DNA of 64,000 bases from assembly GCA_963666835.2 (NCBI GenBank), contig CAXXGO010000006.1, positions 928,001 through 992,000 of the forward strand, read 5' to 3'. Numbering within the stretch: position 1 is the first letter of the stretch; each line of letters starts with the position of its first letter. The notes under the pieces were generated by a model. That model was not told the DNA's origin. It searched no databases and saw only the letters and a list, made by a program, of their open reading frames with translations. Origin of the DNA: Phycisphaerae bacterium (GTDB lineage: Bacteria > Planctomycetota > Phycisphaerae > UBA1845). The translations under genes and the position numbers were made by a program. Below, piece by piece: positions 24,403-29,123 of the stretch.

Positions 24403-25683
24403 CTATTCCTTCAAATCCAGGGCGATTACCGCGTTGCGGTCTCGAATCAACAGAGTCGTACCCGCCAGCGTCGGCGTCACCCGACACGGCGTTTCCAACA
24501 GCTTGACTTTGGAGTGGATAACCAGTCCCGGACCCTTGGCGGTCGCCAAGGCCAACACCCCGGTCTCATCCAGGATAATCAGTTTGCCGTCCCCATAGAC
24601 CAGGTGCGGTCTGGCGAAGCCCTCCTGTTGTCCCACGACCTTTCCGGTGGCGGCTTCCACGACGATCAGCGCCGGCTTTCCGTCCTTGCCGAGGCCGGAT
24701 CCGTACAGGTAATCGCCCAGGCGAATCACATTCGGGCCGTCAAGGGCGGCCGGAACTGACTCCCACATCTGGGCCGCGACCATCTTGCCCTCCATCCTCA
24801 TCAGGTGGAACATCCGCCCCGGCGTTCCTTCGCTCCCCGGAAAGAAGAGCTGATCCCCGGGTCCCCAGACCGGGTTGGCCTGGCTGACTGTCGGCACGGC
24901 GTCGTGGGGAGCACTCCAGAGGAATTCTCCATCAACTGCGCTGAACCCGATTACGCCGCGGGATCCCAGCAGGATGAGGTGAGGCTCGCCCTGGAAGTTG
25001 ACCACGATCGGCGAGCTGAAACCGTTTCGAAACGGTGCCGACTTCCAAACGGCGCGCCCGTCCTCGGGGGCCAACGCGGCGAACCCCATTCGCCCTCCGC
25101 CGGCTTGGATGATAATCAGCTCATTGTGCTCAATCGGACTCGAAGCGTAGCCCGTCGGGAGGAAGGTGCCGCCGAAATCCATGAACACGTTGCGGGTCCA
25201 TCGATACTTCCCGTCCGCCCTTTCCCAAGCGTAGATCTTCCCCGTGAACCCCACGGTATAGATGCCGTCTTTCAGAACCAGAGGGGTTGTTCTCGGACCC
25301 TCGCCGTGGCTCAGATCATATTTGCTCGTCAGGGGCGCCGGATACCGTGATTTCCAGAGCTCCTCTCCGGTCTTCATATCCAACGCCACCAGGGCTTCCT
25401 GCCACGCGTCGAAGAGATACATCACATAAGCCACGCCATCGGCAACCGCGATAGAACCACTCCCGCCCCCCAGTTGGTGGCGCCATAGTTCGCGCGGGCC
25501 CTCTGCGGGCCACTTGGCGGCCAGCCCTTTCGATGCAGCCTTGAAATCGCGGTTCTCGCCGCCCCACTGGGGCCATTGTGCAGAGGCTGCGGTGCCGGCA
25601 GCCAAGAAGAACGCCGCTGCCAGGGCGATCATCAGGCGTTCGGCCACCGTTCGATTCCCTCTTGTCCTGCGGTGTAATGACAT
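24403..25683 (-). CDS. Secreted PQQ-binding-like beta-propeller protein
   Basis: Signal peptide; WPQWGGENRD, GPRTTP, GYASSP, SSPI and TPTLAG..L.IRD. Confidence 0.85.
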   Translation of the reverse strand: MSLHRRTRGNRTVAERLMIALAAAFFLAAGTAASAQWPQWGGENRDFKAASKGLAAKWPAEGPRELWRHQLGGGSGSIAVADGVAYVMYLFDAWQEALVALDMKTGEELWKSRYPAPLTSKYDLSHGEGPRTTPLVLKDGIYTVGFTGKIYAWERADGKYRWTRNVFMDFGGTFLPTGYASSPIEHNELIIIQAGGGRMGFAALAPEDGRAVWKSAPFRNGFSSPIVVNFQGEPHLILLGSRGVIGFSAVDGEFLWSAPHDAVPTVSQANPVWGPGDQLFFPGSEGTPGRMFHLMRMEGKMVAAQMWESVPAALDGPNVIRLGDYLYGSGLGKDGKPALIVVEAATGKVVGQQEGFARPHLVYGDGKLIILDETGVLALATAKGPGLVIHSKVKLLETPCRVTPTLAGTTLLIRDRNAVIALDLKE

Positions 25684-26219
25684 AGGTTTGGCTCTCCTAC
25701 TCTCGTACTTTGCCGACCGATCGCTCGGCAACTGATTTCATGCCTCTCCGGGTATCGGCGTTACCGGCGTGTGAGCCCGGATCATCAGAGAATAGTAACG
25801 TGGACCGCCTCCGCCAGCCATGCCCACCACGTAACGACGCGCGCGTACGCCGCTTCCCGCGACGACTCCGGGAGCACCGCTCCACCGAGTGCGCGGCCGC
25901 CCAAGTATTGTCGGCAGGTTAAGCGGTCCGATTAGGTCGGGAATCAGCCCGGGCGCCCGGCACGTTTAGATTGAGGCCGCAGGCTTCCCCGGAACCGGGC
26001 CACTATCTTCCGTTTATGGGACGTCATCCGACCGGGCCCAACGAAAGTGCGCGGAACGGCGCTCGAGTTCTCGGCATCCGTATCTCCCCTTGCGGCAAGA
26101 CTCGGTTCCACGGTCCCTTCGCGACGGTCTCTCGAGTCCGTGGCCTGCGACCCTTGTAGTAACTTCAGGCGTGGACCGCACCTCGACCTTGCGCTGTCGT
26201 ACGTGGTCAGCGAATTATG

Positions 26220-26248
26220 TTGACTCTCGATAACCGTTTCGATAGTCT
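26220..26248 (+). promoter_or_regulatory. Putative sigma70 promoter for 26358-27899
   Basis: TTGACT-N17-TAGTCT, about 110 bp upstream of the ATG. Confidence 0.4.
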
Positions 26249-26357
26249 CGATTATTGTGGGGTTGGTGTGCCATCATAAGGTGAAGTGCATCTTCCGATG
26301 GCCGGCCGGTTGGGTGTCTTACCCTGACTTTACTGCAACACTCAGGAGATCGGGATC

Positions 26358-27899
26358 ATGAAGCGGCGTTTTCAGACAAGCGATAGAGCGTTGTCGGTGG
26401 TTGCGTTGGGCGCACTGGTGGTGGCCTTCACCTTTTCACCTGGCGCACAGGCGGCGGAACGGATGGTGATTTGTGAGGAATTCACGAGCGTGAACTGAGG
26501 GGGGTGTAGCAGCGCGGGTACCGCGCTTAACGCCGTTCTGACGGCTCATCCGGACAGCTTCACGTATATTCAGATTCACCTAGACGCCTATTCGACGACC
26601 TGGGGTAACAACCGGGCTAACTTCTACAACATCGAGTACACCCCAACTGCGTGGTTTGACGGATGGTATTCCCTCGTCGGAGATACGCATCTGTACGAGG
26701 GGCGATACACGACCCGCTACAACACGCCGACCGATGTTACAATCGACATCAGCGGAGAGCCGGTAGGCGAAGCGACCTATGAGATTACGGCGAATGTCTG
26801 TATCGAACCCGGCGGCACCGCCAAGACCATGCGGGTGCATGTGGCGCAAGTGCTTGACTACTGGCCGTCCAGCCCATCGTATTCTCGTAACGGGCTCAAG
26901 CAGGCAGCTCCGCAAGCAACGGTCACCGTCGCCCCCGGCGCCTGTGAAGAGGTCGTCAATACGATGACCTTCGATGCGACCAGTTGGACGAACAAAACCG
27001 ACATCAAGATCATCGCCTGGGCTCAAAATACCATGAGTTCCGGACCGTCCGAGGTATACCAGGCCGCCAGGTGGTTCATCCCGATTCCGGGCGATTTCAA
27101 CGGGGATCGCAATGTGGACTCGGAGGACTACGACACGTTTACACTCGATTGCTTCACGGGGCCGGACGGTGGTCCGATCGATCCGGCCTGTACTCCGGGT
27201 GACTTTGACGAAGATGACGACGTTGACTGCGACGATTGGGACCAGTTCGTTCTGGCCTGGACCGCAGGGGGAGATCCACCTGCGTTCGAGACGTGTGTGA
27301 TAGCCTCCCCGGAGCACGCGGCCGGGGAGCATTCTGTCTTGAAGAACCGTTATATCTCGTTCAGTCCGATCGATGCGGGCGGTACGGAAGTCGCCTACCG
27401 GTTGGACACCACCGATAGCACGTTCTTCCCGGATACGGTCGGGACGACCAGGTGGATCGGTGACCCGGATGCGGATAACCTCGCTGGCGTAGAGTCGGAG
27501 CCGATCTACCGCAGTGCCTGGCCGGAAACGGTTCACGTCGGGAGTTGTCACATTGTCCCGGCGTCAGTCTATGCGGTTAGTGCTACAGATGGAGTGGCAA
27601 CGTCTGATCCCCTAGCGCTGTACACGATCATTCAACCCATCCCGAAGAACTGGGGAGATATCGCCGGACCGTTCATCGGTGGCGAGTGGACGGCCCCCAA
27701 CGGCACGGTGAGCATGGACGATGTGATGGCGCTTCTCCAGGTGTTTCAGGCAACCCCCGGTGCTCTCCACATGACCCGTGGTGATTTGCACGATAACGGT
27801 CCTAATCGCGTGGTCAACATGAGCGATGTCATGATTGAAGTGGGTTGCTTCCGCGGCGATCCGTATCCTTACGGTTCGGCGACCGACCCGTGCGAATAG
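26358..27899 (+). CDS. Candidate selenoprotein (513 aa): signal peptide, thioredoxin/Omp28-like domain with UGGC motif, dockerin-like Ca-binding repeats and a C-terminal domain
   Basis: AGGAG RBS, ATG 26358, signal peptide ending AQA, then ERMVICEEFTSVN-TGA(26496)-GGC. The frame stays open into ORF 26829-27899. A hairpin starts 12 nt after the TGA. Confidence 0.8.
26503..26534 (+). promoter_or_regulatory. Putative bacterial SECIS element
   Basis: AGCGCG-GGTAC-CGCGCT upper stem (26511-26527) with a G-led loop; GGTGT/ACGCC can form a lower stem. Confidence 0.65.
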
Positions 27900-27952
27900 G
27901 CGTGTGACAGAGCTGCGTCACCACACTGCGTAGCGTAGCAGAACCACCGAAG

Positions 27953-27992
27953 CTCCCGGGGCGGCTCAAGACCGCCCCGGGAGTCTTTTTTT
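27953..27992 (+). terminator. Rho-independent terminator
   Basis: CTCCCGGGGCGG-ctcaaga-CCGCCCCGGGAG followed by TCTTTTTTT. Confidence 0.9.
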
Positions 27993-28253
27993 CACGGCCG
28001 GTGATTGCAGAGAATTGCCATCTTCGGGTGGTTAGCCCGGGTCATTCATCCAAGCCAAGGATCGGGCACCAGTCAGTGTCGTGCCAGGGCTTGTTTCCGG
28101 CGTGGAAGCACGCCGTGTTACCATTACGTCACCCACAAGGAATGACGCTACCGCGAGTTACGTGTAATCATGCGAACGTCATGAGTAGTCCGGGCCGGAT
28201 TCGTAGCGATTGATCGTGCCTGATGTACGGCTGCGCCGTGGGGATTATTGTCA

Positions 28254-29123
28254 TCATGCGGATCGGCCGGGTTGGGGCAAGCGCCGCCGGGTGATCTCGA
28301 CGGCCTGCACGTTGGCATCGCATCCGAGCCAACGCCGGTTCAAGCGGTGTGCCACCGCCAGCGCCGTTCCGCTGCCGCAGAAGAAATCACCGACCACATC
28401 TCCTTCGTTGGAACCGGCGCGGATGATCCGCTCGAGCAAGGCCTCCGGCTTCTGGGTCGGGTATCCGGTTCTTTCCTTGGCGACCGTAGAGAGAAACGGG
28501 ATATCCCAGACATCCGTCAGTTCCGGTCCCTCGGGGTGGAACTTGAGGGGGCCGTTCCGCGTGGACTTGTAGGGGGTACCATCTGCAGCGGTCTTCAGAC
28601 CACGTGTGCGGTATGATCCTCCGCGAAGCCGGTTGAACGTCTGCCGACCGGCCTGCCGGGCGTATGCCAGGATCGTGTCGTGTTTGCGAGCGAACCACTG
28701 CCCGCAGCGCCCGCCACTGCGGTATTGCCAGATGATCTCGTTCAGGAACTGTTCCGGGCCGCAGATCTCATCCAACATCACCTTGACATAATGCACCGTA
28801 CGCCAATCAAGATGAACGTAAAGGCACCCATGTGGAGAGAGCAGGCGGAACATCTCCGCCAAGCGGGGGCGGAGGAACTCCAGGTATCCGGCGACACCGC
28901 GCCCGTGCCGGTCATCGAACGTGACGCCCGGCCGGTCTGCGGCAACGTGCACGCGATTGCAGTTAAACGGCGGGTCGGCGTAGATGAGATCGCAGCAACC
29001 AGTCTCCAGCGTTTCCATGAACGCCAGATTATCCGCGGCAACGACCCTGCCCAAAGGAGCTGAAAGGGGGCTTGGCCGGTCCGCCAACGGAAGGACGTGG
29101 CTCGGTGATTGACCGCTGCTCAA
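28254..29123 (-). CDS. Site-specific DNA methyltransferase (N6-A/N4-C, beta class), orphan
   Basis: IYADPPF, NEIIW, YPTQKPEALLERII and DFFCGSGT. Confidence 0.9.
   Translation of the reverse strand: MSSGQSPSHVLPLADRPSPLSAPLGRVVAADNLAFMETLETGCCDLIYADPPFNCNRVHVAADRPGVTFDDRHGRGVAGYLEFLRPRLAEMFRLLSPHGCLYVHLDWRTVHYVKVMLDEICGPEQFLNEIIWQYRSGGRCGQWFARKHDTILAYARQAGRQTFNRLRGGSYRTRGLKTAADGTPYKSTRNGPLKFHPEGPELTDVWDIPFLSTVAKERTGYPTQKPEALLERIIRAGSNEGDVVGDFFCGSGTALAVAHRLNRRWLGCDANVQAVEITRRRLPQPGRSA

Follow-up and report, generated by a model that had tools for sequence, protein, structure and literature searches.

A probable exported selenoprotein of the HBP35/Omp28 thioredoxin-like kind in a Phycisphaerae bacterium, with a paralog fused to nine heme motifs

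We analysed a 64,000-nucleotide stretch of DNA from a Phycisphaerae bacterium (contig CAXXGO010000006.1 of assembly GCA_963666835.2, positions 928,001 to 992,000; hereafter the window, in whose numbering bare positions are given), and found in it a gene at 26358-27899 with an in-frame TGA at codon 47. The TGA almost certainly encodes selenocysteine (Sec, U), the insertion itself being deduced by comparison, and our best reading, to which we give a probability of roughly 75%, makes the product a thiol-disulfide oxidoreductase of the HBP35/Omp28 type that works in the envelope or at the surface with Sec as its nucleophile. This reading builds on the sequence, the Sec machinery of the genome, the alternation of Sec with cysteine (Cys), the covariation of a hairpin behind the TGA and a predicted fold, from which we infer the rest. 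The features that carry the argument are the following:

26358..27899, + strand: the whole gene, 513 aa, with one in-frame TGA and the stop TAG at 27897-27899
26358..26453, + strand: signal peptide for general secretion, from hydropathy, with a predicted cut after AQA (A32)
26454..27086, + strand: HBP35/Omp28-type domain, consisting of a thioredoxin fold (about residues 33-123) and a beta-sandwich (about residues 125-243)
26496..26507, + strand: putative active site U47-G-G-C50, with TGA 26496-26498 read as Sec from the column comparison
26511..26527, + strand: hairpin AGCGCG-GGTAC-CGCGCT of the selenocysteine insertion sequence (SECIS) type, with a G in the apical loop, 12 nt past the TGA, from covariation
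26640..26663, + strand: TPTAWFDG motif, starting at residue 95, with Pro96 at the thioredoxin cis-Pro position

The frame 26358-27899 is free of stops except for the TGA at 26496-26498, which lies in the context EEFTSVN-TGA-GGC, that is E-E-F-T-x3-U-x-x-C. The GC content at third codon positions is 0.67 ahead of the TGA, 0.70 between it and 26829, and 0.69 beyond. Position 26829 holds the earliest in-frame ATG, GTG or TTG past the TGA, and the mechanical list of open reading frames (ORFs) begins the gene there. Matches to the domain numbered 72 in 26 of the 101 genomes of the taxonomic family, and the column of the TGA could be read in 70 of them, the two exceptions being a fragment and the 3' part of a copy with a frameshift. 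This column holds TGA in 54 copies, spread over 26 genomes, Cys (TGC or TGT) in 12, glycine (Gly; GGC) in 3, tyrosine (Tyr; TAT) in 1 and tryptophan (Trp) in none; all three copies of the domain within the genome of the window have TGA. The second Cys of the UxxC motif is kept in 66 of 67 aligned copies. A quick tree, computed with the Sec column masked, requires the Cys label to change 8 times, and strong branches force at least 4 of these changes; Sec and Cys have thus switched repeatedly.

The genome of the window (6.0 Mb, 61% GC, 92% complete) also possesses the apparatus for Sec insertion: selA (479 bits) adjoins selB (302 bits) on contig C1, with scores all above the family cut-offs, and a tRNA-Sec lies on contig C6. 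Two selD genes are present (C1:1328296-1329225 and C6:1524365-1525294), one of which is without an internal stop while the other has an in-frame TGA in a UxxK motif followed by a hairpin. The 174 database proteins retrieved include 61 full-length sequences, 55 of them with CxxC, and 113 that begin past the Sec column and so lack both the signal peptide and the active site. These late-starting proteins would be the footprint of gene callers halting at UGA, as judged from the protein records.

The same 113 proteins, together with the ordinary use of TGA as a stop in this genome (15 of the 58 ORF ends checked), could be cited for a different view, which takes the TGA for a genuine stop, a mistake of the assembly or a codon for Trp, and the ORF behind it for the actual gene. 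We regard this as scarcely tenable, and as refuted by the alternation at the column, the hairpin comparison given below and the contigs of the sequencing runs. The TGA is covered by contigs of four out of four runs with no other letter, these runs representing at most 3 samples from 2 studies and one of them possibly being the source of the assembly. It is fixed at one column across 54 copies from 26 genomes, alternating with Cys and never with Trp; a tRNA-Trp(CCA) is present in the genome, and the 360 Trp residues in the domains of the TGA copies are all read from TGG. Moreover, both the leader and the fold's first strand are encoded upstream of the TGA. An initial annotation, made from the letters of the window, had described the ribosome-binding site and ATG at 26358, the signal peptide, the TGA at codon 47 and the open frame to 27899, all of which are seen in the sequence, and had argued that gene callers would truncate the gene for want of another start before 26829, as the ORF list and the database proteins bear out. 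Its proposal that Sec replaces the first Cys of an Omp28/thioredoxin-like CxxC agrees with the 54 TGA and 12 Cys among 70 copies. It had named three places where the proposal might fail, and none of them spoke against it: selA, selB, two selD genes and tRNA-Sec were all found, the homologs have mostly TGA or Cys and never Trp, and no run shows TGC or TGT.

The hairpin provides a further line of evidence. Bacterial SECIS elements, as delimited in the available text of a 2026 review, have a loop of 3-9 nt with a G among its initial two positions and a stem of 4-16 bp, stand 16-37 nt from the UGA and fold at -7.5 kcal/mol or lower (PMC13188914). The hairpin at 26511-26527 falls within all the limits stated there, with its loop at +19/+20, a stem of 6-7 bp and an energy of -11.7 kcal/mol for +10 to +33. 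The loop's Gly is encoded by GGT in 51 of 53 TGA copies and in 7 of 11 with Cys, compared with 18-20% elsewhere in these genes, and the loop-closing pair forms in 48 of 54 TGA copies (GC 33, CG 11, AT 2, GU-type 2) versus 4 of 12 Cys copies, though these codon and pairing figures overstate independence, since the copies are related and the structure was derived from them. Relative to synonymous shuffles, the folding energy is -3.8 kcal/mol in the TGA copies and +0.4 kcal/mol in the Cys copies. For 53 of the 54 TGA copies, two-sided changes occupy 26 cells versus 8 in shuffles, a value that none of 500 shuffles matched and that exceeds every slid control. For a check beyond the family we turned to another family of the order, in which two TGA copies show this hairpin and two fusion copies with Cys have no GGT loop. 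The support for the hairpin is thus comparative, and we find it convincing: the element covaries in TGA copies and decays in Cys copies. The initial annotation had singled out this GC hairpin 12 nt 3' of the TGA as SECIS-like; it is present, and covariation backs it where the single-sequence fold does not. With the hairpin kept alongside Sec, decaying alongside Cys, and repeated switches between the two, the family offers a clean natural test of SECIS evolution. A search of 25700-28300 against Rfam gave 0 matches at E 1, and a loose genome-wide scan for SECIS elements and motifs returned 207 rows, mostly noise, which we do not take as a selenoproteome.

The predicted structure connects the protein to oxidoreductases. 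An AlphaFold2 model of the domain, based on 67 sequences, has a predicted local distance difference test score (pLDDT) of 96.1 and aligns with HBP35 of Porphyromonas gingivalis (5y1a) at Z 23.2, with a template-modelling (TM) score of 0.76 and a root-mean-square deviation of 2.5 over 209 aligned residues at 12% identity. It also matches Atu2684 (2axo; Z 19.3), and its sandwich part matches P. gingivalis Omp28 (2r2c; Z 12.5). At the sequence level, the family profile matches thioredoxins (best E 2e-5) as well as 5y1a among PDB sequences; a single-sequence search of PDB sequences gave chance matches only, and in Pfam neither the whole protein nor any of its parts matched a family. Pro96 stands unchanged in all 67 aligned copies, and we presume from the thioredoxin fold that its geometry is cis. 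Two further Cys residues, C148 and C196, possibly form a structural disulfide; each is present in 47 of the 67 copies.

HBP35 is the most informative of these relatives: according to the available text of its description, it reduces insulin in a manner that needs C48 and C51, complements an E. coli dsbA mutant, binds hemin even as its 27-kDa form and is attached to the surface by its C-terminal domain (PMC2907840). As predicted for the protein studied here, HBP35 of P. gingivalis has the two-part fold, a CxxC at the same place, export and a C-terminal attachment domain; it differs in using Cys where Sec stands here, and thioredoxin activity has been shown for HBP35. Its C-terminal domain is reportedly of the Bacteroidota type IX kind, whereas this protein ends in an FnIII/dockerin-like module. 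No tail model of the type IX secretion system matched the protein in the Pfam and NCBIfam scans, and a search for SprA was empty, as it was in all of the controls (0/14 with a match). Atu2684 and Omp28 (NF033782) are alike in fold, and neither has Sec on record; in addition, this protein has an AQA-type leader and no evident lipoprotein leader, as a point of difference from Omp28. Against NF033782 it scores 16.9 bits, versus a cut-off of 150, and 50 of the 67 family members match that model weakly.

The leader is hydrophobic, with its 15-residue hydropathy peaking at 2.5 over residues 12-26, and ends in AQA (30-32); comparable leaders stand ahead of the domain in homologs. Export by the twin-arginine translocation (Tat) route was considered and rejected, as the motif RRxF[LIVM] occurs in 0 of 70 leaders, which makes general secretion the likely route. 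The protein is very probably exported, judging from its leader. The initial annotation had called it exported and probably surface-associated; the leader supports the first part, and a surface location is plausible.

From these elements a mechanism can be proposed. SelB with Sec-tRNA would bind the hairpin 12 nt past the UGA and put Sec at codon 47, both the machinery and the hairpin being present. The leader would then route the unfolded chain through general secretion and be cut after A32. In the predicted thioredoxin fold, U47 would be displayed as the nucleophile and C50 as the resolving residue, with Pro96 facing both, a chemistry modelled on HBP35, and the enzyme would alternate between the selenol/thiol and selenenylsulfide states while reducing or rearranging S-S bonds of the envelope. 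The C-terminal module, common to 57 other ORFs, may retain the protein in the envelope or on the surface. Likely clients would be the Cys-rich exported proteins of the lineage. As for recycling, the genome has a DsbD-type (DsbD-TM) protein and two VKOR homologs, which would be the likely partners on the reducing and oxidising side, respectively; DsbB was not found in this 92% complete genome. By analogy, it is quite probable that the protein is an active oxidoreductase, and we lean slightly towards protein disulfides as its main substrate.

Alternatively, the protein might be mainly a surface adhesin or a heme- or ligand-binding module, in which the UxxC keeps the protein reduced or binds metal without turnover. 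The binding of hemin by HBP35, even in its 27-kDa form (PMC2907840, in the available text), the fusion of the domain to very different C-terminal parts and the four copies without the first Cys/Sec would all fit such a role. However, Sec with a covarying SECIS in 54 of 70 copies, a resolving Cys in 66 of 67 and a Pro in 67 of 67 make up the pattern of a catalytic site, and we consider a purely binding role improbable.

Several observations weigh against a Sec-based oxidoreductase, in addition to the relatedness of the copies in the hairpin comparison. Taken alone, the hairpin is within chance (z -1.63), with 10 of 200 shuffles folding equally well. With selA in 96 of 101 family genomes, the presence of the machinery is a precondition and not a discriminating test, and one genome, G075 (90% complete, 480 contigs), carries TGA copies yet has no selA match. 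The first Cys/Sec was lost in four copies that keep the second Cys (Gly in L041, L077 and L078; Tyr in L019), so that some members persist without Sec/Cys chemistry; L078 additionally appears to be frameshifted. The two residues inside the UxxC vary widely across copies and thus give no pointer to a reductase or an oxidase. Finally, an identity of 12% to HBP35 means that the function is borrowed from the fold.

With regard to known selenoproteins, the top curated match is the NCBIfam model NF045500, 'Omp28-related selenoprotein' (50.3 bits, E 2e-13, cut-off 200), which pairs residues 31-250 of the protein with model positions 35-278, so that both have about 30 residues ahead of the domain. In the available text of PMC13188914, Table 1 gives NF045500 as GOS_C with UxxC. 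GOS_C was predicted by Zhang and Gladyshev in 2008, and the available text describes it as a thioredoxin-like UxxC protein whose function was unknown, counting 74 sequences with Sec and 312 with Cys (PMC2398784). This kind shares with our protein the thioredoxin-like fold, the UxxC and the interchange of Sec and Cys; unlike our protein, the GOS_C descriptions, as far as their available text goes, are without its C-terminal module or a nonaheme/hydrogenase link. Since 50.3 bits compares with a cut-off of 200, we place the protein, on its alignment scores, as a divergent branch of the known GOS_C/Omp28 selenoprotein kind that the curated model does not capture. The idea in the initial annotation of an uncatalogued selenoprotein family must therefore be given up, because NF045500/GOS_C, predicted in 2008, already holds this kind.

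The best E-value against NF045500 among the 67 family domains is 9.8e-18, and across 301 genomes of the class none reaches its cut-off, the best score being 86.7 bits. Positions of about 270-315 in the model match acidic repeats elsewhere in the genome, which suggests that the model, too, has a dockerin-like stretch behind its domain. In the available parts of their main texts, neither BSepDB (PMC13326102) nor deep-Sep (PMC12013277) mentions Omp28, and our literature search yielded no paper on the topic that joins Omp28 with selenoproteins or selenocysteine. The source names of the homologs are of Planctomycetota and Phycisphaerales. A sample of 400 genomes of the phylum, with 7 candidates scored per genome, gave 4 weak partial matches, and the search of the class did find relatives in the order; for the range of the domain outside the class, protein searches are the source. 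A pattern scan of genome contigs with the single protein gave 67 pattern matches, none of them confirmed. New here are the FnIII/dockerin-like tail of about 185 aa on 58 ORFs and the paralog linked to nonaheme and hydrogenase. The branch was missed by the curated model and is cut short in databases; to correct this is of use, though an incremental gain. More is to be gained from the fusion of a Sec-thioredoxin domain to a nonaheme part within a hydrogenase operon, by which function becomes directly testable: for Omp28-type UxxC selenoproteins it suggests both a donor (H2 or reduced heme) and an acceptor (a disulfide or polysulfide).

In this paralog (G000:C6:886598-889069) the Sec domain is joined to TSP3-like repeats and to nine CxxCH motifs. 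Its stop codon runs into the start of the gene for a [NiFe]-hydrogenase small subunit with a Tat signal, behind which come the large subunit, carrying DPCxxC and hence Cys, and a maturation protease; the locus spans G000:C6:886598-892135 (L094:8599-14139). Among 20 loci fetched for context, 12 have the nonaheme domain, and in 10 of these both hydrogenase subunits lie directly behind it. All 18 family genomes with the hydrogenase large subunit carry the Sec/Cys domain, 14 of them with a fusion within 8 kb, and 8 non-fusion copies from 6 genomes likewise lie within 8 kb of the hydrogenase (these counts use 71 of the 72 domain matches). Full-length nonaheme fusions score 100-113 bits on NF045500. 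We found no paper, by title or start of abstract, on a fusion of Sec-thioredoxin, nonaheme and hydrogenase. In the same region, L094:9886-10203 partly resembles the C-terminal part of a UshA-like (seleno)protein model (NF041198; 110 bits versus 275). Right after the maturation protease, the ORF L094:14136-15287 carries a single CxxCH at its N-terminus and the shared module at its C-terminus. L094:5828-7426, on the - strand and divergent from the nonaheme fusion, encodes a very Cys-rich, exported-looking protein, which is a possible client for disulfide handling.

The locus raises the prospect of an extracytoplasmic chain, so far undescribed, in which the Sec-thioredoxin domain forms the catalytic terminus; it would run from H2 through the Tat-exported [NiFe]-hydrogenase and the nine-heme cytochrome to UxxC, for H2-fed sulfur reduction outside the cytoplasm. 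The tail-tethered stand-alone copies, such as the product of the gene in the window, would then be accessories that take electrons from the fused paralog and relay them to surface disulfides or polysulfide, small disulfides or Se/S compounds. The overlap of the fusion with the hydrogenase small subunit, the presence of the domain in 18 of 18 hydrogenase genomes and the nine-heme fusions that another family of the order has in three genomes are in keeping with this idea. So is the position of G017:C1:4951970, one of the two nearest tree relatives of the gene, which adjoins a hydrogenase locus and is among the 8 non-fusion copies, although this grouping rests on a Shimodaira-Hasegawa-like approximate likelihood-ratio (SH-aLRT) value of 83 in a quick tree. 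A precedent by analogy is the periplasmic MccSep of Geobacter sulfurreducens, in which Sec is joined to multiheme S-S cleavage (PMC13510729, in the available text). Like the fused paralog, MccSep has Sec and several c-type hemes, but it has five hemes, its Sec stands beside a heme-ligating Cys that it uses in place of a thioredoxin fold, none being described in the available text.

On the other side, the gene in the window is devoid of heme motifs, has a terminator to itself and is separated from the hydrogenase locus by about 65 kb; 8 of the 26 genomes with the domain are without a match to this hydrogenase at E 1e-120, and 6 of the 20 fusions have Cys instead of Sec. Many unrelated cargo domains have been shuffled onto the same tails in this lineage, so that the fusion may mean co-display and not electron transfer. 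We therefore regard such a chain, and the relay through stand-alone copies, as a tentative and rather unlikely possibility. If true, it would amount to a thioredoxin system driven by heme, with neither DsbD nor a flavin reductase, and would give a first hold on what the GOS_C/Omp28 selenoproteins do. For the gene in the window we retain the reading as an envelope or surface thiol-disulfide oxidoreductase.

The third Sec copy of the genome, C1:1961800-1965756 (L095:9801-13757), encodes 1318 aa; to the Sec-Omp28 domain and an FGE-sulfatase-like part it adds repeats rich in Cys and Asp, a long stretch of propeller-like repeats and the shared tail. In the gene of the window, the parts behind the domain are:

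27093..27245, + strand: two acidic DxDxDG loops (dockerin/EF-hand-like pair), from sequence, with no Pfam match at E 0.05
27333..27896, + strand: C-terminal module of about 185 aa, an FnIII-like sandwich with a dockerin-like two-helix end

The initial annotation had spoken of dockerin-like repeats, and the two acidic loops are indeed seen; we take them to be of the dockerin/EF-hand type from their motif. The module ends 58 ORFs of the genome including this gene, in 54 within 25 aa of the C-terminus, with further examples at C6:593064-593621 and three neighbours. Its model has a pLDDT of 88.5 and shows an FnIII-like sandwich, then two 11-residue helices after acidic loops. Structure matches to FnIII reach Z 7.3 at best, within the range of common sandwiches, in rows covering tail residues 1-101; the model gave no Foldseek match at E 0.001 and the module no Pfam match, and the nearest Atlas clusters are mostly of Planctomycetota. 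Against the GC-type dockerin model NF041540, this protein scores 19-22 bits versus a cut-off of 29, and at E 0.05 the model picks up 29 of the 41 copies of the tail; two Cys-type homologs pass the cut-off (P0028, 30.0 bits; P0071, 30.6 bits). Like NF041540 proteins, this genome has a C-terminal dockerin-like pair on many exported proteins; it differs in that an FnIII-like sandwich precedes the pair, giving the module of about 185 aa. The module is probably a tether or sorting tag, which is the simplest reading of its fixed place at the C-terminus of many large proteins, and thereby a candidate lineage-specific sorting or anchoring signal.

The signals flanking the gene are as follows:

26220..26248, + strand: possible sigma-70-like promoter TTGACT-17-TAGTCT, near-consensus (8/12), unverified
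26344..26348, + strand: Shine-Dalgarno sequence AGGAG, 9 nt ahead of the ATG at 26358
27952..27994, + strand: intrinsic terminator-like stem of 13 pairs with a T-run, from a terminator scan

The candidate promoter put forward in the initial annotation fared poorly: it agrees with the consensus at 8 of 12 positions, below the threshold of a promoter scan that reported no + strand site in 25700-28300. The strong terminator it had placed 3' of the gene corresponds to the stem at 27952-27984. With this stem behind it and both neighbours on the - strand, the gene appears to stand alone. The neighbours are an adenine DNA methyltransferase-like gene (28254-29123) and a BamB/PQQ-propeller-like gene (24403-25731), and no functional link between either of them and the gene was seen. 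Elsewhere in the genome, the - strand at C1:1903505 reads VLLVFYRGHW-TGA-PWC, which from its motif is presumably a peroxiredoxin-like (AhpC/TSA) UxxC selenoprotein.

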